From a virus (lineage: Duplodnaviria > Heunggongvirae > Uroviricota > Caudoviricetes): a stretch of DNA of 16,215 nt. Below, piece after piece: positions 500 through 12,291 of this stretch. The number at the start of each line of letters is the position of its first letter. The first letter of the stretch is position 1. The stretch is from the IMG/VR virus record IMGVR_UViG_3300034107_000364; one strand, given 5' to 3'. The translations under genes and the position numbers were made by a program. The notes under the pieces are model-generated. The model had not been told where the DNA came from and made no database searches. It was given only the letters and a program-made list of their open reading frames with translations.

Positions 500-3400
500 A
501 TGGGATTTACTAGACCAGTTTCAACACAATACGCCTTTGGTAATTTTATTTCGCCAAGTTCATCATTAAGTCCTTATGAAGGAATTGTACATGCACAACA
601 TGTAAAGGGTGGGTATCAAAAGGTATTTACAATTGAAGAAAGAAATGCCTTACCTATTTGGGGTGAAGCACCTGCACCAGTTACACATATTGGTTTTACA
701 GTTTCAAACGATGGTGGATATACAACGGGTATTCGATCAGTTGGTATGCTAGTTTATGTCATTGAAGAAAATAAATTTTATGTCTTAATACCTAAAGGAT
801 ATTGGGGCAATAATGGTGTTTTAGGTGATACTGAATGGCAAGCGTTACCACAATGGGTTCGCGCAGGTCTTTTAAAACCTAATAGTACACAAATATACAC
901 AAATGTTATAGGTGGACCTCCAACATTTTTACCACAATTATATACACCATCTTCAACTAATGGTAATGATCCATGGGTAGAAGTTAGTTTAAACGGTTTA
1001 GATGGTACTAATGGTACTTCTGGAATTGATGGAACAAGTGGTACTAATGGTACATCAGGAATTGATGGAACTTCAGGTTCAAGTGGAGTTAATGGTTTAC
1101 AAGGAGAAGCAGGTTATAGCACTGGTCAAATATTCTATATGAATGAATCAGTTACTGTAGTTAATAATGGTGGCGGTGCAAATGATCTTAATGAAATTTC
1201 ACCAATCCCAGTATCTAGTGTACAACAAATAGTAACTACTGATTTAACTCCGTTGCAATCAGATGTATTAGTTACTCAATTTATAACTCCAGTTGGATTA
1301 GGTGTTGCAGTAGTATCTGCTGGTATTCAATCATTTTTAATGCACTTCACTAAAGAAGTAGATTCACATGCTATTCAAGTATATGTTAAGGTTACTCGTA
1401 CAGATGCAGGTGGAATACCAATTGCTGTGTGGGGAACAACTACACCTACATTAATAGGATGGGACACTTCTACTGCAATTCCAGTGGATGTATATCAAGA
1501 CTTATTTTTAGAACAACATTATATAAGTCCTACTGATAAAGTATTAGTTCAAATTTATGCTATTAACGATGATAATCAAAATAGAACTATTAAATTTTAT
1601 ACAGAAGGCGTTTCAAATTATTCACATATAGTTTCATCTTTAGGTGCAACTGAAGGACCTGCGGGTTCTAATGGTACATCTGGAACAAATGGATCTAATG
1701 GTTCTTCAGGAACAAATGGTTCTTCAGGAACTAATGGTTCTTCTGGAACAAATGGTTCTTCTGGAACAAATGGAACAAATGGAACAAGCGGTGTAACTGG
1801 AAATCCTGGAACAAGCGGTTCTTCTGGAACAAATGGAACTAATGGTTCTTCTGGAACAAATGGAACTAATGGAACTAATGGTTCTGATGGATCTTCTGGA
1901 ACAAATGGAACAAATGGTACAAATGGATCTGATGGAACTTCAGGAACTAATGGTTCTTCAGGAACTAATGGAACTTCAGGAACTAATGGAACTTCAGGTT
2001 CAAATGGAACTGATGGAACTTCAGGTTCAAGAGGTAATGATGGATCTTCTGGTATTAATGGTACTAGTGGAATGGATGGATCACACGGAACTTCAGGAAC
2101 TAACGGAACTTCAGGAACTAATGGTAATAATGGTACATCTGGATTTGATGGTGCTGATGGTTCTTCAGGAACTAATGGTTCTTCTGGAACTAATGGTACA
2201 TCTGGTACTAATGGAACTTCAGGCGCTAAAGGTGATACTGGAACTTCTGGAACTAATGGTTCTTCTGGAACTAATGGTACATCGGGTTTAAATGGTTCAA
2301 ATGGCACAAGCGGTGCTAATGGTACATCAGGAACTAATGGTTCTTCTGGAACAAACGGTACGAGTGGTACTAATGGTTCAAATGGAACTTCAGGAACTAA
2401 TGGTTCTTCTGGAACAAATGGAACTAGTGGAACTAATGGTACATCTGGTACTAATGGTTCTTCTGGAACAAATGGAACTAATGGTTCTTCTGGAACAAAT
2501 GGAACTAGTGGTACTAATGGTTCAAATGGCACAAGCGGTATAAATGGAACTTCTGGAACTAATGGAACTAGTGGTATTGATGGTCGTAATGGATTAGATG
2601 GAACTTCTGGAACTGATGGTTCAAGTGGTATAAATGGAGAACGTGGTACATCAGGTACTAATGGTTCTTCTGGAACAAATGGATCTTCAGGAACTAATGG
2701 TTCTTCTGGAACTAACGGAACTTCAGGTACACATGGAACTAACGGAACTTCAGGTGCAAATGGAACAAGTGGAACTAACGGAACTTCAGGAACTAATGGT
2801 ACTAGTGGTACAAATGGTTCTTCAGGTAGAGATGGTACTAACGGAACTTCAGGTGCAAATGGAACAAGTGGAACTAACGGAACTTCTGGAACTAATGGTA
2901 CTTCAGGTACACATGGAACTAACGGAACTTCAGGAACTAACGGAACTTCTGGAACTAATGGTACTAGTGGTATAAATGGAACAAGTGGAACTGATGGTAT
3001 AAACGGAGAGCGTGGAACTTCAGGTACAGATGGTTCTTCAGGTAGAGATGGTATAAATGGAACTTCAGGTGCAAATGGTTCTTCTGGAATTAATGGTACT
3101 AGTGGTTCTTCTGGAATTAATGGTACTAGTGGTACTAATGGTTCTTCAGGAACTAATGGAACATCTGGTTTAAATGGTACTAGTGGTACAAACGGAGAGC
3201 GTGGAACTTCAGGAACTAATGGAACTAATGGAACAAGTGGTACTAATGGAACATCAGGAACTAATGGAACATCAGGAACTAATGGTTCTTCAGGAACACA
3301 TGGAACTAACGGTACAAGTGGTACTAATGGTTCTTCAGGAACTAATGGTACATCTGGCGCAAATGGTACTTCAGGAACTAATGGTTCTTCAGGTACAAAT

Positions 3401-4384
3401 GGAACTAGTGGTACAAACGGTGAGCGTGGAACTTCAGGAACTAATGGATCTTCAGGAATAAATGGTTCTAATGGTACAAGCGGTACTAATGGAACTTCTG
3501 GAACTAATGGAACTTCAGGAACACATGGTACTAATGGTACATCTGGAACTAATGGAACATCAGGAACTAATGGTTCTTCAGGAACTAATGGTACTTCTGG
3601 TACAAATGGTTCTTCAGGTAGAGATGGTACAAGCGGTTCAAGCGGTATTAATGGTACATCTGGAACTAATGGTACAAGTGGTACTAATGGTACATCTGGA
3701 ACTAATGGTTCTTCAGGAATTAATGGAACTAATGGAACATCAGGAACTAATGGTACTTCTGGTTTAAATGGTACGAGTGGTACTAATGGAACTTCAGGTA
3801 AAGATGGTACAAGCGGTTCTTCTGGTAGAGATGGTACAAGTGGTACTAATGGAACTTCAGGAACACATGGTACAAATGGTACATCTGGAACTAATGGTTC
3901 TTCAGGAACAAATGGTACAAATGGTTCTTCAGGAACAAATGGTACATCAGGTATCAATGGACAACCTGGACAACCTGGAGAAGCGGGCATAGGATCATGT
4001 TATGAACATGTATCAATTTGTGCAACTCCAAGAGATGAAAAAATTACAAATCAATCACTTCAAAAATCATTTGTATTAATACCATATACATTTGCTTTAG
4101 AAGGTATGATTTTAACTGGAATTGAGTCTTCATACGGTGTAAGTGATAATACACAAGAAGTTAGATACACTCTATGGGGTGTAGATGCAACTGGAACCGC
4201 ATCAGTATTATTAGTTTGGGATCATGCAAGTAATACTAAATTTGCAGAAAGCATATACAATAATGTCGCTGCTCAATTATGGGATAATAAATATGTATAT
4301 GTTACTGGTAATCAATCAGACTACGATGGAGTTGGATTTACAGTAACTGCAATATTTACTAACTCAAATTGTACACCGAAATAA
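500..4384 (+). CDS. Collagen-like (Gly-X-Y) fibre protein, 1294 aa: N-terminal globular module, 14-triplet collagen segment, central globular domain, about 260-triplet collagen segment, C-terminal globular domain
   Basis: Long ORF with an A-rich TAAAA start context. Gly occurs at every third residue over 995-1120 and 1655-3994. The non-repetitive domains have normal protein composition. Tail-fibre or virion-appendage function is inferred from architecture and neighbours. Confidence 0.9.
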   Translation: MGFTRPVSTQYAFGNFISPSSSLSPYEGIVHAQHVKGGYQKVFTIEERNALPIWGEAPAPVTHIGFTVSNDGGYTTGIRSVGMLVYVIEENKFYVLIPKGYWGNNGVLGDTEWQALPQWVRAGLLKPNSTQIYTNVIGGPPTFLPQLYTPSSTNGNDPWVEVSLNGLDGTNGTSGIDGTSGTNGTSGIDGTSGSSGVNGLQGEAGYSTGQIFYMNESVTVVNNGGGANDLNEISPIPVSSVQQIVTTDLTPLQSDVLVTQFITPVGLGVAVVSAGIQSFLMHFTKEVDSHAIQVYVKVTRTDAGGIPIAVWGTTTPTLIGWDTSTAIPVDVYQDLFLEQHYISPTDKVLVQIYAINDDNQNRTIKFYTEGVSNYSHIVSSLGATEGPAGSNGTSGTNGSNGSSGTNGSSGTNGSSGTNGSSGTNGTNGTSGVTGNPGTSGSSGTNGTNGSSGTNGTNGTNGSDGSSGTNGTNGTNGSDGTSGTNGSSGTNGTSGTNGTSGSNGTDGTSGSRGNDGSSGINGTSGMDGSHGTSGTNGTSGTNGNNGTSGFDGADGSSGTNGSSGTNGTSGTNGTSGAKGDTGTSGTNGSSGTNGTSGLNGSNGTSGANGTSGTNGSSGTNGTSGTNGSNGTSGTNGSSGTNGTSGTNGTSGTNGSSGTNGTNGSSGTNGTSGTNGSNGTSGINGTSGTNGTSGIDGRNGLDGTSGTDGSSGINGERGTSGTNGSSGTNGSSGTNGSSGTNGTSGTHGTNGTSGANGTSGTNGTSGTNGTSGTNGSSGRDGTNGTSGANGTSGTNGTSGTNGTSGTHGTNGTSGTNGTSGTNGTSGINGTSGTDGINGERGTSGTDGSSGRDGINGTSGANGSSGINGTSGSSGINGTSGTNGSSGTNGTSGLNGTSGTNGERGTSGTNGTNGTSGTNGTSGTNGTSGTNGSSGTHGTNGTSGTNGSSGTNGTSGANGTSGTNGSSGTNGTSGTNGERGTSGTNGSSGINGSNGTSGTNGTSGTNGTSGTHGTNGTSGTNGTSGTNGSSGTNGTSGTNGSSGRDGTSGSSGINGTSGTNGTSGTNGTSGTNGSSGINGTNGTSGTNGTSGLNGTSGTNGTSGKDGTSGSSGRDGTSGTNGTSGTHGTNGTSGTNGSSGTNGTNGSSGTNGTSGINGQPGQPGEAGIGSCYEHVSICATPRDEKITNQSLQKSFVLIPYTFALEGMILTGIESSYGVSDNTQEVRYTLWGVDATGTASVLLVWDHASNTKFAESIYNNVAAQLWDNKYVYVTGNQSDYDGVGFTVTAIFTNSNCTPK
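995..1120 (+). repeat. Short Gly-X-Y segment (14 triplets, GLD...GYS)
   Basis: GLD GTN GTS GID GTS GTN GTS GID GTS GSS GVN GLQ GEA GYS, read directly. Confidence 0.9.
1655..3994 (+). repeat. Long Gly-X-Y coding repeat (about 260 triplets; 9-nt period; mostly GTN, GTS, GSS)
   Basis: Runs from GPA (1655) to GIG (ends 3994). Gly codons checked at 2636, 2726, 2825, 3005, 3194, 3419, 3617, 3860 and 3977 are all multiples of 9 nt from 1655, and no break was seen in the translation. Confidence 0.95.
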
Positions 4385-4397
4385 AATAAAATAAATA

Positions 4398-7118
4398 ATG
4401 GCATTATCTGTAAGCTCATATGGGCAATCTTGTGTACCACCGACTAGTTTTGTAAGTTTAGCTTATGATCCATTAAGTCCTAATAATATTAACAATTCAA
4501 ATGTTTTTAAGACTTATTCTACAAATGGTCTAGCTATAAACCAAAATAAATTAACTATTCCAACTCAATGTACTACAGGGTTAGATATAGTATTTTTAGT
4601 TGACTATACTGGATCTATGGACGGTGCAATCAATGGTGTTAAAGCTGGTATTGCTAATATTTTAAGTACTATCGATAGTGAATCATTAGGTAATTATAGA
4701 GTAGGACTTTGCATATTTGATGAATATGCCGGTAATCTAACATCTCCACCGTCAAACAACTATGGACAGACATCTATATACTTAAATTTACCAGCATCAC
4801 AAAAAGCTGTGATAAACACATTTAATAATAGAACTCAATTTATTACATGTATGCAACCATTAGGTAATGTTGGTTCAATTACTGATTTTCAAACAAAACT
4901 TAATTTATTAGCTACACCTAGTTTTCCTTTAGGATATGGTCAAGGTGCGCCAGAACCCGGTGGTTTAGGGATCAATGAAATATTGTCTAATAATATTGCA
5001 GGATCATTTAGATCTGATGCAATTAAACTTATTATTTTAATAACTGATGATGTTCCAGGTGGAAATGACGATGTTAATAATTCAACAGATCAAACTTATT
5101 TTGAATATAATTTATTAGGTATTTGTAATTCATACGATGCACAATTAATGGTACAAAGTTCATTAGCATCAACATATCCTGGTAATTATTATTATGGCTT
5201 ATCTACTGCAACTACTCCAGTTGGAAGATACGATCAAGTTACATTTGATAGTAACGGTAACTGGATCAACACAGGCTTAATCTCTGGCATACAAACTTTA
5301 TGTGACAATAGTTATATAGCTACGTGTGAAACAGCGCCCAGTGGATGGTATTATGAAGCAGGATCAGCATATGCTGTATACTACGATAGTGTACTTGGTT
5401 ATGTAACTGATGAGTATTGGTTTCCACCTACTTATAGTATTTCTGCTAATAAAACACAAGTCAATGAAGAAAATGTAAAAATTACATTTGTAGTTGACAC
5501 ACAATATTTAAATGCATCACCAACAACACTTTGGTGGGAATTAGGACCATATAATGCAAATGCAAGTGATTTGGTTGAAGCTATCAACAATGGTTATGTA
5601 GTAATTACTACTACTTCGGGTGTAAATGGTCAAGGTGTATTTGAATTAACCACAAAATCTGATAATTTAACAGAAGGTGATGAATGGTTGATTGTAAAAC
5701 TTACTAATGCTAGTAGTATTGTATTAGATACAGTTAATGTAAGAATACTTGACAGTTCGTTAAACCTACCAACGGCAACGCCAATTCCACCAACAGCAAC
5801 AGCTGTACCTTGTTATACTTATAATTTTCAATTAACAGATAGTTGGAATAGTGGTTACATACAATATACAATGTGTGATGGTAGAAGTGATACAGTGTAT
5901 TTAACACCATATTCTCAACCTGTTGTTTTATGTGTAAAAGCAATTGCATATTATCAAAATATTATTATAACACAAATTGGATCTCAATGTTATTCATCTT
6001 CGGGTGCAGGTGCAGGTTATCCAACAGCAACACCGATTCCACCAACACCAACTACATATATACCAGAACCGACCTTAGTTCCTCCGACATCAACTCCGAG
6101 ACCAACTGATGCACCTTCGGGTACATGTTATCATGTATGGGTAGCTGATACAGTGGACATATTTAGATATGGATTAGGTTATAATTTTGGAAGTTATATA
6201 CAAAGAACATTTAATGAAATGCTAGCTTCACCTTATTATTATAATGGAAGATCTGGAGCAGTATATTCAGTATGTAGTAGTTCAGTGCCAAGTACATGGG
6301 ACTCATCAGAAATGGTATTTATAATTTCAGATGATATTTTCGTAATTGACCAAACTATTGGATGTACAAGTGAATTTGGATGTAGTTACAGCGAATATAT
6401 TCCAAATCCTACAGCAACACCAGATAAACCTACTCCAACTGTATATAGATCATGGTTAGCAGAAAGAAATGATGGAGGTGTATATTCGTATGTGGGACCA
6501 TATAGTGATTTATATAATCTTGATCAATTAGTATATGTAGACGATGCATCTGGAACGTGTTGGAGATTAGTTCAGCCTGATACAACACCACCTGAGTATA
6601 CTATATTTGAATTATGTGCCGGAACTCCAGGAGGATGTTTACTAGAAGGAACTTTAGTTAAATTATCAAACGGTACTCACGCTACAATAGAATCGTTAAC
6701 AATTGGTATGGAATTATCTTCAATGATAATAGGTAATATGCCAGATGGAGATAATTATCAGAATTTAATACAATGGTCTCAAACAAATCCAACTTTATCT
6801 AATACATCGGCTACAGTTACTCAAAATACTGAACACATTGTAAATAGCGTGTTAAGTTTTAATGATGGTTTATTAACTTCAAGTGAAGATCACGTGCATA
6901 TTATAAAAAGAAATTCAGTATGGTCTGTAATGAAAGCTAATGATATTTTAGTTGGCGATTCATTTATTAATCAAGATGGATATGAACATCTAATTACTTC
7001 TATTGTAAAAAATAGTGGATCATTTAAAGTTTATAAATTAGACGTAGAGTCTAATGATGTATACGTAGCAAATGGTATAATTACACACAATAGAAAAGAA
7101 GATCCTATAGCACCATAA
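4398..7118 (+). CDS. Multidomain adhesin-like protein, 906 aa: VWA, Calx-beta-like domain, Pro/Thr linkers with Cys-containing modules, C-terminal Hint domain
   Basis: MIDAS-like LDIVFLVDYTGSM and IKLIILITDD; YSISANKTQVNEE...DNLTEGDEWLIVKL...VRILDSS; PTATP linkers; CLLEGT...SEDH...VYKLDVESNDVYVANGIITHN. Confidence 0.88.
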   Translation: MALSVSSYGQSCVPPTSFVSLAYDPLSPNNINNSNVFKTYSTNGLAINQNKLTIPTQCTTGLDIVFLVDYTGSMDGAINGVKAGIANILSTIDSESLGNYRVGLCIFDEYAGNLTSPPSNNYGQTSIYLNLPASQKAVINTFNNRTQFITCMQPLGNVGSITDFQTKLNLLATPSFPLGYGQGAPEPGGLGINEILSNNIAGSFRSDAIKLIILITDDVPGGNDDVNNSTDQTYFEYNLLGICNSYDAQLMVQSSLASTYPGNYYYGLSTATTPVGRYDQVTFDSNGNWINTGLISGIQTLCDNSYIATCETAPSGWYYEAGSAYAVYYDSVLGYVTDEYWFPPTYSISANKTQVNEENVKITFVVDTQYLNASPTTLWWELGPYNANASDLVEAINNGYVVITTTSGVNGQGVFELTTKSDNLTEGDEWLIVKLTNASSIVLDTVNVRILDSSLNLPTATPIPPTATAVPCYTYNFQLTDSWNSGYIQYTMCDGRSDTVYLTPYSQPVVLCVKAIAYYQNIIITQIGSQCYSSSGAGAGYPTATPIPPTPTTYIPEPTLVPPTSTPRPTDAPSGTCYHVWVADTVDIFRYGLGYNFGSYIQRTFNEMLASPYYYNGRSGAVYSVCSSSVPSTWDSSEMVFIISDDIFVIDQTIGCTSEFGCSYSEYIPNPTATPDKPTPTVYRSWLAERNDGGVYSYVGPYSDLYNLDQLVYVDDASGTCWRLVQPDTTPPEYTIFELCAGTPGGCLLEGTLVKLSNGTHATIESLTIGMELSSMIIGNMPDGDNYQNLIQWSQTNPTLSNTSATVTQNTEHIVNSVLSFNDGLLTSSEDHVHIIKRNSVWSVMKANDILVGDSFINQDGYEHLITSIVKNSGSFKVYKLDVESNDVYVANGIITHNRKEDPIAP
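4581..5303 (+). other. VWA (von Willebrand factor A) domain
   Basis: Hydrophobic strand followed by D-Y-T-G-S (DxSxS-type MIDAS variant; Asp codon at 4602), later the APEPG loop and the LIILITDD strand typical of VWA. Boundaries approximate. Confidence 0.8.
5430..5760 (+). other. Calx-beta-like / Ig-like beta-sandwich domain
   Basis: TYSISANKTQVNEE start, D-x-L-T-E-G-D-E-x-L-x-V-x-L core and V-x-I-x-D-S-S end resemble Calx-beta repeats. Recognised by eye only. Confidence 0.55.
6636..7091 (+). other. Hint (intein-like, BIL-type) autoprocessing domain, 152 aa, no endonuclease
   Basis: N-terminal Cys747 in GG|CLLEGTLV (block A), S-E-D-H matching the block B TxxH, VYKLDVESNDVYVANG (block F) and terminal His897-Asn898, followed by the 8-aa tail RKEDPIAP. 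Confidence 0.88.
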
Positions 7119-7221: not shown

Positions 7222-8469
7222 ATGGAAGAAACCATATTTATTCAAATTGCAAGTTACAGAGATCCAGAGTTATTGAATACTCTTAAGGATTGTTTACTAA
7301 ACGCTGAATTTCCAGATCGTCTTAGATTTGGTATATGTTGGCAACATTCCGAAGAAGATACATGGGATACATTAGATCAATATAAAAACGATTCGCGATT
7401 TAGAATTTTAGATGTAAATTATAAAGATTCAACTGGAGCATGTTGGGCACGAAATAGCATTCAACAACTTTATCAAGGTGAAACTTATACATTTCAATTA
7501 GATAGTCATCATAGGTTTATTAGAAACTGGGACACTGAATTGATTAATATGCTAAGGGGTTTACAAGCTAAAGGTCATGCTAAACCATTACTTACAAGCT
7601 ATATTTCATCATATAATCCAGAAATCGATCCAAAGGGCAGAACTCAAGCACCATGGTTAATGAATTTTGATAGATTTACTCCAGAAGGTGTAATATTCTT
7701 TTTACCTGCTACAATTCCAGGATGGGAAAATATGACAGAACCAATTCCTTCAAGATTTTATTCAGCACACTTCGCATTTACAGTAGGTCAATTTGCAATA
7801 GAGGTACAACATGATCCAGAATTCTATTTTCATGGTGAAGAGATTACTATTGCAGTTAGAGCATTTACACACGGATATGATTTATTCCATCCACATAAAA
7901 TTATTGCGTGGCATGAATATACTCGTAAAGGTAGAACTAAACAATGGGATGATGATTCAGAATGGGGTAAGAGAAACACAAGAACTCATGAAAAAACTCG
8001 TAAACTATTAGGAATTGATGGAGAGTCATTTGATTCAGAAGAAGATATTTATGGTAAATATGGATTAGGTAGAGTTAGAACTATTGCAGATTGGGAAAGA
8101 TACGCAGGTATTAGACTTAGAGATCGTGCAGTACAACAATGGACCACATCTAATAAACTTGCACCTAATCCTCATGTAGAAGATTATGATAATAGTTTTC
8201 ATCATATATTCAAACACATTATAGATGTGCATAGATCTGTGCTTACTGAAACAGACTACACTTTTTGTGCAGTGATTATGGAATCAGAAGATGGTACTTC
8301 AGTTTATAGAAAGGATTTAAACGACCATGAGATTTCTCAGAAATTACAACAACCTGGTGATTGGATACACATTCATGTAGACTTGCAAGGACCAAAACCA
8401 TATAAGTGGATTGTTTGGCCACATAGCGCATCAAAAGGTTGGTGTACAAAAATAGAAAGAGTTTTATGA
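7222..8469 (+). CDS. GT60 / GlcNAc-transferase-like glycosyltransferase (Pfam GlcNAc-type) with C-terminal extension
   Basis: TIFIQIASYRD N-terminal strand, GACWAR, QLDSHHRF (DSH metal-binding motif), AHFAF and FYFHGEEI...RAFTHGYDLFHP...WHEY are characteristic of the Skp1/polypeptide alpha-GlcNAc-transferase family. Confidence 0.8.
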   Translation: MEETIFIQIASYRDPELLNTLKDCLLNAEFPDRLRFGICWQHSEEDTWDTLDQYKNDSRFRILDVNYKDSTGACWARNSIQQLYQGETYTFQLDSHHRFIRNWDTELINMLRGLQAKGHAKPLLTSYISSYNPEIDPKGRTQAPWLMNFDRFTPEGVIFFLPATIPGWENMTEPIPSRFYSAHFAFTVGQFAIEVQHDPEFYFHGEEITIAVRAFTHGYDLFHPHKIIAWHEYTRKGRTKQWDDDSEWGKRNTRTHEKTRKLLGIDGESFDSEEDIYGKYGLGRVRTIADWERYAGIRLRDRAVQQWTTSNKLAPNPHVEDYDNSFHHIFKHIIDVHRSVLTETDYTFCAVIMESEDGTSVYRKDLNDHEISQKLQQPGDWIHIHVDLQGPKPYKWIVWPHSASKGWCTKIERVL

Positions 8470-9071
8470 CAATAGAAGCAGTTGTTGCTAAATACAATGA
8501 AGATGTATCTTGGACAAAAAAACTTAAGTATAAAGTAACTATTTACAATAAAAATGCAGCAGATAATCATTTATTTGAAAGAAATCTGTTAAATTATGGT
8601 AAAGATGCGCATACACACCTACATCATATTGTAACAAATTGGTACAATTTAGCTGATTACACAATATTCTTACAAGGAAATCCATTCGAACATGATTGTG
8701 AAACTTGTGTAGAATTTATCAATGATTGTGATTTTACAAAACCATTTTATCCAATTGGACCAACTTATATCAGAGATAATGATGGTTGTATTAAGCAAGC
8801 TATTGATTACTGTGAAAAAATGGAAATTGAATATAAATTGCCATTTATGTTTATAGGTGGTATGCAATGTATTGTAAAGAAAGATCAAATTAAGAAAAGA
8901 TCATTAGATTTTTACGTAAAACTAATGGAAAGTATAGCAAAAAATATATCAACTTCTTCATTTTCTGGAGGAGCACATGGAAACGATCCACAAATATGGG
9001 CACTAGAGTATAGTTGGCCTACAATATTTGGTGTAAATGAAATGTTGACACATAAATTACATAATTGTTAA
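8466..9071 (+). CDS. DUF3431-like protein (probable glycosyltransferase-related), 201 aa
   Basis: VVAKYNEDVSW and NYGKDAHTHLHHIVTNWYNLADYTIFLQGNPFEH motifs. Start moved from 8439 to ATG 8466, which forms an ATGA overlap with the upstream TGA. Confidence 0.7.
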   Translation: MTIEAVVAKYNEDVSWTKKLKYKVTIYNKNAADNHLFERNLLNYGKDAHTHLHHIVTNWYNLADYTIFLQGNPFEHDCETCVEFINDCDFTKPFYPIGPTYIRDNDGCIKQAIDYCEKMEIEYKLPFMFIGGMQCIVKKDQIKKRSLDFYVKLMESIAKNISTSSFSGGAHGNDPQIWALEYSWPTIFGVNEMLTHKLHNC

Positions 9072-9072
9072 A

Positions 9073-9894
9073 ATGAAAAAAGTATTAACAGGAGTTAGCA
9101 ACAATGTAACCAATAATATCGATAAAATTAGGGTTTGGGCTAATAGTTTTAAAAAACATGTAAAAGACGGTGAAGTAGTACTTATTGGAGCTGATATGAA
9201 TGCTCAAGATAGAAATGTTTTAAATCTAAATGGAATTAAATTCCATGCTATTGAATCAGATCCAGGATTAACAATTAATGATAGTAGATTAATTCATACT
9301 GCAAATTGGATAGAGAATAGTCCTTATGATTTATTTATGGTAACCGATGTATTTGACGTTTGCTTTCAAGCAGATCCATTTGAAATGTTAGAACTAGACA
9401 AATATGATTTCTTTGCTGGATCAGAAGGTGTATTACATAATGAAGAGCCTTGGAATATGGATGTTATGAATAAAGCATTTCCAGAATATGTAGATTTTAT
9501 TAGACAATATGAGGTGGTTTGTAGTGGAGTAATGTGTGGTAAAAAAGATTCATTAGTAAAAACATTAAGAATGCAACAACACTTAGTAGATGGTTCATTA
9601 AAAGGCCATGATATAAGGGATCAAGCTGCATTTAATATTTTAATTTATAAGAACTTAATTGATAATTGTAAAATCTTTAAACCTAATGAAGGTTGGGTAG
9701 TTCACTGTTCATTATCAGGTCCTACGTTTCAACATATAGAATGGGGTTTAGGAAAAGCTATTGATAAAAAATATGGTTTACCTAAATTACAAGAAAATGT
9801 TTTGATTGACTCAAACAACATAGTGTACAAAATTGCACATCAATATAATAGAATTCCTGAATGGAATGAAAAAATAATTGAACAATATGTCTAA
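9073..9894 (+). CDS. Putative GT-A fold glycosyltransferase
   Basis: FMVTDVFDVCFQADPF (TDxxDV metal/nucleotide-sugar motif), VCSGVMCG, DQAAFN and HQYNR motifs typical of GT-A enzymes; lies inside a glycosylation cluster. Confidence 0.65.
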   Translation: MKKVLTGVSNNVTNNIDKIRVWANSFKKHVKDGEVVLIGADMNAQDRNVLNLNGIKFHAIESDPGLTINDSRLIHTANWIENSPYDLFMVTDVFDVCFQADPFEMLELDKYDFFAGSEGVLHNEEPWNMDVMNKAFPEYVDFIRQYEVVCSGVMCGKKDSLVKTLRMQQHLVDGSLKGHDIRDQAAFNILIYKNLIDNCKIFKPNEGWVVHCSLSGPTFQHIEWGLGKAIDKKYGLPKLQENVLIDSNNIVYKIAHQYNRIPEWNEKIIEQYV

Positions 9895-10612
9895 AACAAT
9901 AGTATGTACATGTGCTAATACATTTAAATCATATGAATCGTATTGGAAAACTGTAGATTTTGACTTTGAATTTTTATCTGATAGAGCACCTATTGGAATA
10001 GAATATGATGAACAAAAAGTAAGAGATCTTTTTAATTTTAGAAGTGATGTTAGTAAATTACATTGGTGGAATCAACAAGGTAATAGAAATATTATTTGGT
10101 TCTATGCACATCTTAGAATGGCATATTATTATATGCTTAATCCCAATGAAGATTGGTATTGGTTTATGGATGATGACTTAGTATGTGATAATTGGTCAGA
10201 ATTCTTTAAAGCATTTGAAAATAACAATACTGATTTTATTTCTTATTACATATTTAAGAACAAAGGAGTGACTAGTCAACCTAACATTCCCGAAATTGAT
10301 GCTAACACATACAGTAATACATTATGGTTTGATAGATTTCCAGGTGATGGTGACCAAATCAATAAAAATGGTGAATTATTTGGATCATTCTTTCCAATTG
10401 TTAGATTCTCAAATAAAAGTCTACGTCACATAACAGATTTATTACTAAATGGTGTACATGGATATTCTGAAGGATTTGTGCCAACTATATTAAATAAAGA
10501 CGGATTTACACTTGACACTATTTTTAATAATCAAAGTAGATCAAATCATTTTGATGTAGATAAGATACATATTAAACATAAGGGCATTAGAGTAGAGTGG
10601 TCTTGGATATAA
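9887..10612 (+). CDS. Putative GT-A fold glycosyltransferase, 241 aa
   Basis: YWFMDDDL (DxD after a hydrophobic strand), FFPIVRFS and HGYSEGFVPT. The track start at 9878 is TTG; ATG 9887 overlaps the upstream stop by 8 nt and is the more likely start. Confidence 0.6.
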   Translation: MSKTIVCTCANTFKSYESYWKTVDFDFEFLSDRAPIGIEYDEQKVRDLFNFRSDVSKLHWWNQQGNRNIIWFYAHLRMAYYYMLNPNEDWYWFMDDDLVCDNWSEFFKAFENNNTDFISYYIFKNKGVTSQPNIPEIDANTYSNTLWFDRFPGDGDQINKNGELFGSFFPIVRFSNKSLRHITDLLLNGVHGYSEGFVPTILNKDGFTLDTIFNNQSRSNHFDVDKIHIKHKGIRVEWSWI

Positions 10613-10625
10613 ATAAAATTTAGCA

Positions 10626-11402
10626 ATGAAACCATTAGTTATTACGGCACTTTATGATATTGGTAGATCTGAATGGAAAGATTTCGCACAATCATATCAC
10701 ACATATTTACATTGGATGCAAAGAGCACTTAGTCTTAGGGCTAATATGGTGGTTTTTACAGAATCTAAGTTCGAAGAAAGAATTAGACAGATGAGATCTG
10801 AAGTAGATCCAACTGGAGAAATGACCACATACGTAATAAACTCAATAGAAGATTTAGAAGCATACAAGACTTGGTTCACTAAAATAGATCAAGTTATGCA
10901 TGATGATGAATTTTTAAAGAAAAGACATTGGGATCATGTACCTGAAATGAATTATCCTTTATATAATATAGTAATGTTCAATAAGATCTTCTTTTTAAAT
11001 GAAGCACTTAAATTACATAAAGACGCAACTCATTTAATATGGGTAGATGCAGGTGGTATTAGAGAAGATATGGATTATCCAGAAACTTGGCCTAATATAG
11101 AAAAACTATCAATGGATACTATAATGCATTTTACACACAATTTAGATTTTGCAATACCAGATCCAGAATGGCACACTCTTTCACAACAAAGACATATACA
11201 AGGTGGAGCATTCGTTTGTCCAGCATGGAAAATAGATTGGTACATGAATGAGATAAATAAGACAATAGGTTTTTGCTTAGATAGGAATTTTATTGGAAGC
11301 GATGAAAAGATTTTTGATCTAACATATTTAAGAGATCCTAAACAATTTACATTAGTCAAGCATGGATGGAGAGAATATTACAGTTGGCTAGGAACTAAAT
11401 AA
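10626..11402 (+). CDS. HtrL/YibB-like protein (putative glycosyltransferase)
   Basis: LVITALYDIGRSEW...TYL...NMVVFT, YNIVMFNKIFF, WVDAG, IQGGAF and SDEKIF match the HtrL_YibB pattern as I recall it. Confidence 0.7.
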   Translation: MKPLVITALYDIGRSEWKDFAQSYHTYLHWMQRALSLRANMVVFTESKFEERIRQMRSEVDPTGEMTTYVINSIEDLEAYKTWFTKIDQVMHDDEFLKKRHWDHVPEMNYPLYNIVMFNKIFFLNEALKLHKDATHLIWVDAGGIREDMDYPETWPNIEKLSMDTIMHFTHNLDFAIPDPEWHTLSQQRHIQGGAFVCPAWKIDWYMNEINKTIGFCLDRNFIGSDEKIFDLTYLRDPKQFTLVKHGWREYYSWLGTK

Positions 11403-11409
11403 TTAAAAT

Positions 11410-12291
11410 ATGTATACATTAGTAACAGGAGGAGCAGGATTCATCGGAACACATCTTATTAAGTCATTGCTTACTGAGAAACCGCATACAAAAATAGTTT
11501 CACTAGATGATTATTCTACTGGCCTAAAATCTAATCATATTCAAGGTGTACAGTATATAGAAGGTAGAACTCAAGATGCTCTTCGATTACTAGAAAGATT
11601 TGAGATTGATAAAATCTACCACTTTGGAGAATATTCTCGTATACATCAATCATATCAAGAAATAGAAAAGGTGCAATCTTCATGTGTTGAAGGAACTAGT
11701 CAAATTATAAGATTAGCTATAAATCAAAATGCAATCCTAATTTATTCAGCATCTTCATCACATTTTGGACAAAAAGATCAAGATCTTTCACCATATAGTT
11801 GGTACAAAAAACAAAATGTAGATCTTATTAAAAAGCACCAAAAATGGAGCAATCTTAAATCACACATATTTTATTTCTTTAATGCATATGGACCTGGACA
11901 AATTACAGAAGGTGCATACGCAACTGTCTTAGGTATATGGGAAAATCAAATCAAGAATCAACAAGCAATAACTATCGTTGAACCTGGAACTCAAATAAGA
12001 ATCTTTACAAGAGTAGAATCAATTGCATTAGCATGTACTCGTCATGATCTTTTACCTATTAATGGTGAATGGGCGCTGCACTCTGAAGACAAAGTAACTC
12101 TACTACAAATAGTAAAAAAGCTTAAAAAGAAAACCAAATGGTTAGAAGCCAGAGATGGTGATAGATTAAAAGTACCTAAACTAACCATACCTAAACCACC
12201 ATATTGGGAACACCCTTATAGATTAGAAGATTGGATAGGTGATCTTAGAAGATGGACTCGTCCTGAAACAATAGAAGATTATGATATATAA
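11410..12291 (+). CDS. NAD-dependent nucleotide-sugar epimerase/dehydratase (extended SDR)
   Basis: LVTGGAGFIG Rossmann motif, LDDYSTG, catalytic Ser in YSASSS, YxxxK in PYSWYK, FFNAYGPGQ. Substrate not assignable. Confidence 0.9.
   Translation: MYTLVTGGAGFIGTHLIKSLLTEKPHTKIVSLDDYSTGLKSNHIQGVQYIEGRTQDALRLLERFEIDKIYHFGEYSRIHQSYQEIEKVQSSCVEGTSQIIRLAINQNAILIYSASSSHFGQKDQDLSPYSWYKKQNVDLIKKHQKWSNLKSHIFYFFNAYGPGQITEGAYATVLGIWENQIKNQQAITIVEPGTQIRIFTRVESIALACTRHDLLPINGEWALHSEDKVTLLQIVKKLKKKTKWLEARDGDRLKVPKLTIPKPPYWEHPYRLEDWIGDLRRWTRPETIEDYDI

Follow-up and report, generated by a model that had tools for sequence, protein, structure and literature searches.

In the 16,215-nucleotide stretch of Caudoviricetes DNA recorded in IMG/VR as IMGVR_UViG_3300034107_000364 (hereafter the window, meaning the whole stretch), an uninterrupted open reading frame (ORF) at 4398–7118 on the forward strand encodes a 906-residue adhesin-like protein with a von Willebrand factor A (VWA) head and a C-terminal Hint domain. 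The last 160 residues of this protein are probably a self-excising cassette, resembling an A-type bacterial intein-like (BIL) domain, set between a Gly linker and the short C-terminal tail of a fibre-type VWA adhesin. Sister phages carry the same gene in the same place and with the same kind of tail, but without the Hint domain, so the domain most likely excises itself and does not ligate the adhesin elsewhere. It seems to act as an intein-like passenger, or as an end-cap that the adhesin can do without, rather than to couple the adhesin to an acceptor from outside. Autoprocessing of the adhesin in some form is very likely, judging from its conserved residues and from the behavior of related domains. 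An initial annotation of the window had proposed that the N-terminal portion is released, or is covalently attached to an acceptor. Self-processing is still the best reading of a protein whose catalytic positions are invariant, while attachment to an outside acceptor has found no support.

Identity of the Hint Domain

The anatomy of the domain was read from the codons. Cys747 (6636–6638) follows Gly746 (6633–6635), the block B histidine is His832 in the motif Ser829-x-x-His832 (Ser829, His832 and His834 lie at 6882–6899), and the domain closes with His897-Asn898 (7086–7091). Arg899 (7092–7094) occupies the +1 position and Lys900 (7095–7097) the +2 position, and the tail of eight residues ends with Pro906 (7113–7115) ahead of the stop codon (7116–7118). 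Since the span from Cys to Asn is 152 residues, it is too short to hold an endonuclease, and no endonuclease insert is present. The Cys, the block B His, the terminal His-Asn, the Arg at +1, the short tail and the lack of an endonuclease had all been named in the initial annotation, and each was found; chance falls far short of accounting for the domain.

The proposal had also been made to depend on conservation of the catalytic residues, and this is borne out. In 21 aligned close sequences C747, G751, T752, H832, H834, K837, E884, D887, T896, H897, N898 and K900 are invariant, and Cys1, the block B His and the terminal His-Asn are likewise invariant in 76 distant relatives.

Residues 731–906 were modeled with AlphaFold2 from a 21-row alignment, with a predicted local distance difference test (pLDDT) score of 89. 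A Foldseek search of this model against the PDB gave 61 matches at E ≤ 1e-3, every one a Hint domain, with BIL and intein structures at E values from 5e-10 to 1e-6. The top match was the BIL2 domain of the Tetrahymena BUBL1 locus (6Y75/6TMM; E 5e-10, TM score 0.67/0.78), followed by the Clostridium thermocellum BIL (2LWY), many mini-inteins, and Hedgehog (1AT0; E 4e-6). BIL2 was also the best PDB sequence for the family profile (E 4e-7), which placed Cys747 on Cys1 of BIL2, Ser829..His832 on its T-x-x-His69, and the terminal His-Asn on its own. Single-sequence searches of PDB sequences returned noise only. Among curated models, NCBIfam intein_Cterm was the sole one past its cut-off (17.5 vs. 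15.6 bits); Pfam Intein_splicing (21.5 vs. 35.8 bits) and PT-HINT (14.1 vs. 27.7 bits) were sub-threshold, and Hint_2 was not listed. PT-HINT matches 13 of the 76 relatives and Hint_2 five of them at E ≤ 1e-3. The 906-residue protein has no PHROGs family. By sequence and model, the module appears to be intact and of the BIL type, with the features of A-type BIL and BIL2 domains in all but the curated Pfam thresholds.

Three other assignments were ruled out: a canonical intein, by the Arg at +1 and a C-extein of only eight residues; a Hedgehog or Hog domain, by the invariant His-Asn and the mere eight residues that follow the Hint domain; and Vint, by the absence of any match of Pfam Vint to the 906-residue protein at E ≤ 1.

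Hint-Less Orthologues and Cassette Exchange

The Hint module is dispensable at the orthologous locus. A metagenome scan with the head domain gave 80 loci, and in many of these an orthologue lies between a collagen-like C-terminal domain and the same glycosyltransferase genes, at 78–94% identity. Across loci L115–L149 the adhesin itself is only about 50% identical, against 78–97% for the adjoining glycosyltransferase genes (window 4398–7118 vs. 7222–12291). It is therefore a fast-diverging, recombining gene, which fits a host-range determinant.

Complete ORFs with stop codons and without Hint were found at L116, L117/118, L122, L125–L133 and L141. After the last Cys of their final β module come a Gly/Pro-rich run, a basic residue (Lys or Arg), a small number of acidic residues and, in many cases, Pro; in-silico deletion of the Hint domain leaves the same pattern in Hint-bearing proteins. 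One of them shares its last three residues with the tail in the window. When the Hint domain was deleted from P0010, P0008 and L115, the remainders aligned with the Hint-less P0013 at 54–63% identity over about 160 residues, across the junction and into the tail, with the point of Hint insertion exactly at the end of the Gly run. By its sequence, the tail belongs to the adhesin family with or without Hint.

A head-domain tree of 78 rows, 45 of them with Hint, requires at least eight changes in Hint presence, five of which are forced by well-supported branches; L135, scored as Hint-less in this tree, has a Hint domain, which brings the count to about seven. L119, with Hint, and L122, without it, share about 95% identity as far as residue ~570, beyond which their end cassettes are homologous but different. 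The break falls at a Pro/Thr linker, and such linkers appear to act as recombination joints. Conservation of the Hint domain exceeds that of the remaining protein in some pairs and falls below it in others. This unevenness and the L119/L122 break indicate that the module travels with the last fibre cassette by recombination. With the Hint-less orthologues, the alignment across the junction and the roughly seven changes, the module looks like a dispensable, exchangeable and self-excising cassette. The empty-site orthologues, the count of gains and losses and the cassette exchange appear to be new here.

The IMG/VR loci found with the VWA head (L082–L114) had unrelated VWA architectures only and are of no use for the junction question. 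In four sequencing runs there was no contig joining across 6636–7091, as a Hint-less DNA form of this phage would give, though contigs cannot show absence. Contigs from RNA libraries cover parts only and are no proof of transcription. In one metatranscriptome contig (library X17) the Hint domain begins at the same junction (window 6633) but is preceded by a different linker, a Gly run, which points to a related phage with the Hint cassette behind another module.

The Wider Family and Its Conserved Lysine

The same end module is present in about 50 of 73 homologues. An exhaustive search with the Hint part gave 782 clusters at E ≤ 1e-3, each a representative at 50% identity, and 247 at E ≤ 1e-10. 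The match nearly always ends a few residues from the C-terminus, in proteins of 128–1812 residues, and the parts N-terminal to it include fn3, BACON, PKD, CBM5/12, collagen, the gp10 C-terminal domain and tail-fibre PHROGs. Judged by these sequences, nearly all the clusters seem to be ends of phage fibre-type proteins. A homing endonuclease was present in no family member seen.

Of 150 representatives, 145 retain both the terminal His-Asn and a tail. At +1, three of the 145 have Ser and none has Cys or Thr; in 32 the protein ends exactly at the Lys of the +1 or +2 position. The initial annotation had suggested a survey for conserved Lys or Arg at +1. This position proved to be variable, being R, Y, S, A, V, G, L, N or K in the 21 close sequences. 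What is conserved is a Lys, invariant at +2 in the close family and found at +1 or +2 in 129 of the 145 representatives (89%, vs. a background Lys frequency of 3%). Nor is Gly746, which had been taken as the acyl site, a fixed feature, since the −1 position is Gly in only 40 of 119 representatives.

Two variations on the end module were seen. In P0179, P0186, P0196, P0167 and P0187, and at L029, L033 and L041, a Cys-rich extension of 25–41 residues runs past the conserved Lys. From its sequence it may be a small disulfide-type C-extein, and would then be real cargo for splicing or release. At L074 (9050–12331) one ORF, for a tail-region protein, holds two Hint units back to back and then a third Hint-like end, in a tandem array.

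A Proposed Route to Self-Excision and Its Alternatives

The steps proposed here are all drawn from the conserved residues and the chemistry of relatives. Cys747, assisted by His832, would attack the carbonyl of Gly746 to give a thioester. Asn898, with the help of His897, would cyclize and free the tail. An amine of the tail would next resolve the thioester in cis. This could be the ε-amine of Lys900, by analogy with Tetrahymena BIL2, or the α-amine newly exposed on Arg899, by analogy with bacterial A-type BILs. Hydrolysis would be a side reaction, amounting to plain cleavage. The products would be an adhesin of about 746 residues, with or without the eight-residue tail, and a free Hint domain of 17 kDa.

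The premise of the initial annotation that splicing is impossible without a +1 nucleophile holds for canonical inteins, but amines serve in other Hint domains. In A-type BILs, splicing uses the amine that Asn cyclization sets free (PMC4031507), and Tetrahymena BIL2 joins its flanks through the ε-amine of a Lys to form an isopeptide product (PMC8616854).

The invariant His-Asn and the tail point to a reaction in cis at each of the two junctions; if the N-terminal thioester alone mattered, the C-terminal junction would not be expected to be so conserved. That this junction and the tail have been kept by selection argues for the tail being rejoined. By analogy with the relatives, we put re-ligation at slightly less than an even chance. 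Lys as the nucleophile is, on the same analogy, a good deal more doubtful, and so is the broader idea of the Hint family of phage fibres as a natural module for lysine-directed splicing, in which Lys at +1 or +2 replaces Cys, Ser or Thr and leaves a mini-tail joined by a Gly-(Nε)Lys isopeptide bond. If this were true, the thioester might also be captured in trans by the Lys-bearing, Gly-rich tails of other fibre proteins. To our knowledge, lysine-directed splicing chemistry has so far been reported for one ciliate BIL domain only.

Several points weigh against self-excision with re-joining. The Hint family is known here from sequences and models alone, the tail is poorly modeled (pLDDT ~57), and the comparator P0013 is known from its protein sequence alone. 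The tails of Hint-less proteins show that the tail is ancestral in the adhesin family, not that it is re-attached after excision. Many tails in the family are only "Lys" or "x-Lys," which would be odd to splice back, and the Lys could be structural, paired for example with the invariant Glu884 or Asp887.

These very short tails would be less of a puzzle if the reaction stopped at cleavage. The Hint domain would then be a removable pro-domain, for instance an aid to folding or assembly or a mask for the fibre tip, comparable to the C-terminal chaperone that cuts itself off tailspikes; its thioester would be hydrolyzed, the tail lost, and the adhesin would end at Gly746. Cleavage products dominate in the A-type BILs tested (PMC4031507), and the module is always at the far end of fibre-type proteins. 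Such an account leaves the near-universal Lys after the Asn and the invariant His-Asn unexplained, however, and Hint-less orthologues fold and work without a cap and still keep the tail. We regard cleavage alone as unlikely.

Ligation in trans is much less probable again. Here a nucleophile from outside, for example a Lys on another protein of the virion or of the host surface, a lipid or a sugar, would attack the Gly746 thioester and so fix the adhesin covalently. For BIL2, transfer of the N-flank to lysines on other proteins has been described (PMC8616854). Transfer to cholesterol by Hedgehog is a further precedent, and at the tip of a fibre a thioester could plausibly serve as a warhead. 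The initial annotation had raised an acceptor of this kind, a virion protein, lipid or other molecule joined through Gly746. It is made unlikely by the sister phages that lack Hint entirely at the same locus and keep the same kind of tail, by the absence of an adduct-recognition region after the Hint domain, and by the terminal Asn, which has no role in a Hedgehog-type transfer. Nor was a conserved partner gene found beside the Hint genes in 63 dereplicated loci, the largest neighbor family being a baseplate or fibre protein at 17 of the 63. A cis Lys is, moreover, kept beside the active site.

An inactive Hint domain, kept for structure or binding in a functional full-length protein, would suit the sub-threshold Pfam Intein_splicing score and a family described here from sequences and models, but it is very improbable, because Cys1, the block B His and the terminal His-Asn, exactly the residues that decayed Hints lose, are invariant across hundreds of clusters at 20–40% identity.

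Comparison With Known Systems

By structure and sequence the phage module is closest to BIL2, and it would work like BIL2 or an A-type BIL. In BIL2 and the phage module Cys1, T/S-x-x-His and terminal His-Asn align, and neither has Cys, Ser or Thr at +1. BIL2, however, lies between ubiquitin-like domains in a ciliate and has its Lys in a folded C-flank domain, whereas the C-flank of the phage module is a tail of 1–10 residues with Lys at +1 or +2, its host is a phage fibre protein, and the identity is about 17%. The A-type BILs, which include that of Clostridium thermocellum (Amitai 2003 and Dassa 2004, as cited in PMC4031507), share with the phage module a small Hint domain, the lack of an endonuclease, Cys1, a C-terminal His-Asn, no +1 nucleophile, and residence in variable, non-essential surface proteins. 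They cleave, or splice through a free amine. The phage module differs in its fixed place at the extreme C-terminus, its conserved Lys, its phage hosts and its failure to reach threshold with PT-HINT and Hint_2. Its variant features with respect to known BILs are thus the fixed end position on phage fibre-type proteins, the mini C-extein and the conserved Lys.

With mini-inteins (Ssp/Npu DnaB, gp41-1, RecA) the module shares the fold, blocks A, B, F and G, intein_Cterm, and presence/absence alleles at a precise site. Intein-free alleles with the same flanks are represented by the Hint-less positional orthologues, in which the junction is the end of the Gly run. Unlike mini-inteins, it has no Cys, Ser or Thr at +1, no endonuclease and a C-extein of eight residues, and it does not lie in a conserved site of an essential enzyme.

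In Hedgehog and Hog proteins (1AT0) a C-terminal Hint domain also frees an N-terminal functional domain through a Gly-Cys thioester. Hedgehog has a sterol- or adduct-recognition region after the Hint domain and no catalytic terminal Asn, and the phage module is the opposite on both counts. The likeness to eukaryotic Vint proteins, which the initial annotation had pointed out, holds for the domain order in outline, VWA first and Hint last, but not for Pfam Vint. The pairing with VWA is incidental, since the same Hint domain caps fn3, BACON, PKD, collagen and other N-terminal parts.

Phage tailspikes and fibres can carry at the C-terminus an intramolecular chaperone, Peptidase S74, that cuts itself off by means of a Ser-Lys dyad. 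The analogy would be one of position and outcome only, that of a self-removing C-terminal module of fibre proteins; the fold and chemistry are unrelated, and no S74 match to the 906-residue protein was found.

The Adhesin Gene and Its Surroundings

The features of the gene are collected in Table 1. Residues 1–456 were modeled with AlphaFold2 (pLDDT 85), and Foldseek matched the head to integrin β chains, comprising the β I-like/VWA domain and the flanking β domain, at E 1e-10. D69, T71 and S73, which form a triad like that of a metal-ion-dependent adhesion site (MIDAS), are invariant in the homologues. Pfam VWA is sub-threshold on the 906-residue protein (18.6 vs. 23.8 bits), and precomputed matches to it exist for several homologues. 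The VWA assignment of the initial annotation can therefore be kept at the level of the predicted fold, though not at the Pfam threshold. Its Calx-beta assignment was not upheld: for residues 305–456, a predicted β sandwich, there was no Pfam match, and a search of a language-model atlas gave only a lead to Calx-beta clusters (0.79). The same kind of search with residues 570–746 found nothing. Identity to homologues falls to 31–42%, or to no match, in residues 457–736, while the head and the Hint domain stay near 50%.

Table 1. Features of the adhesin gene in the window.
Feature	Coordinates	Strand	Evidence
Whole gene, VWA adhesin-like protein with C-terminal Hint module	4398–7118	+	Translation; 73 homologues; position kept in related phages
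Predicted VWA/integrin β I-like domain, residues ~58–300, MIDAS-like D69-x-T71-x-S73	4569–5297	+	AlphaFold2 model, Foldseek, invariant residues
Predicted β-sandwich region, residues 305–456	5310–5765	+	All-β secondary structure in model
Pro/Thr linkers and Cys-containing β modules, residues 457–736; variable, exchangeable part	5766–6605	+	Linker positions, homologue identity
Gly/Pro linker ahead of junction, residues 742–746, Gly-Gly at end	6621–6635	+	Gly run in Hint-bearing and Hint-less orthologues
Hint domain (A-type BIL-like), Cys747–Asn898, 152 residues	6636–7091	+	Model, Foldseek, profile, invariant residues
Eight-residue tail (mini C-extein), +1 Arg899 variable, +2 Lys900 invariant	7092–7115	+	Alignments; homologous tail on Hint-less orthologues

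The N-terminus, Met-Ala-Leu-Ser followed by Cys12 and Pro15 (window 4398–4460), is near-invariant across the adhesin family, including Hint-less members of 1000–1900 residues, and may be the part that docks to the virion. An estuary metagenome contig has an in-frame insertion of 12 nucleotides in the Gly/Pro linker before Cys747 (window 6627–6629), the same length polymorphism as in the homologue P0002. The GC content of the Hint domain is 28.5%, against 32.8% for the whole gene, a difference too weak to argue for a foreign origin. A scan for promoters and terminators gave results at the level of chance.

Upstream of the adhesin lies a gene for a collagen-like fibre protein of 1294 residues (window 500–4384, forward strand). 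Besides long Gly-x-y runs in which Thr, Ser and Asn are abundant, the protein comprises a globular part at the N-terminus and a C-terminal domain of roughly 130 residues. In every related locus the stretch encoding that C-terminal domain immediately precedes the adhesin gene. Downstream is a glycosyltransferase cassette with the Pfam families GlcNAc (PF11397), DUF3431 and HtrL_YibB and an epimerase. The Pro/Thr-rich linkers of the adhesin (window 5766–6605) are plausible sites of O-glycosylation because the gene adjoins this cassette, which is headed by the GlcNAc-transferase family.

DNA of the phage is present in lake-water metagenomes from more than 12 studies, and at least 108 loci with the Hint family were found in IMG/VR. 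Among 50,697 deposited phage records the family occurs only in Phage NCTB (258 kb, from surface water), in which three genes of a tail-fibre cluster are annotated "intein domain protein." These three (L081; LT598654.1, 90431–102901) encode a tail protein of 506 residues, a Hint-only ORF product of 153 residues and a protein of 1304 residues, all of which end in or consist of Hint, and tail fibre genes adjoin them. BFVD lists "Hint domain containing" proteins of uncultured Caudovirales. A literature search on Hint or BIL modules of phage fibres found no paper describing the module; a paper on phiCbK concerns ordinary inteins.

Significance

Hint domains underlie protein splicing, the maturation of Hedgehog and many tools of protein engineering. 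The family described here would be a very large, unstudied branch of them that caps the ends of phage proteins of the receptor-binding type and has Lys in the place that Cys, Ser or Thr takes in inteins. Understanding its chemistry might bring to light a class of splicing without a side-chain oxygen or sulfur nucleophile in the C-flank, one that tolerates a C-extein of a single residue, and such a class would be attractive for traceless C-terminal processing or for ligation to Lys. The paired Hint-bearing and Hint-less orthologues provide a natural control. For phage biology, the module would show how the tips of fibres are matured and swapped.

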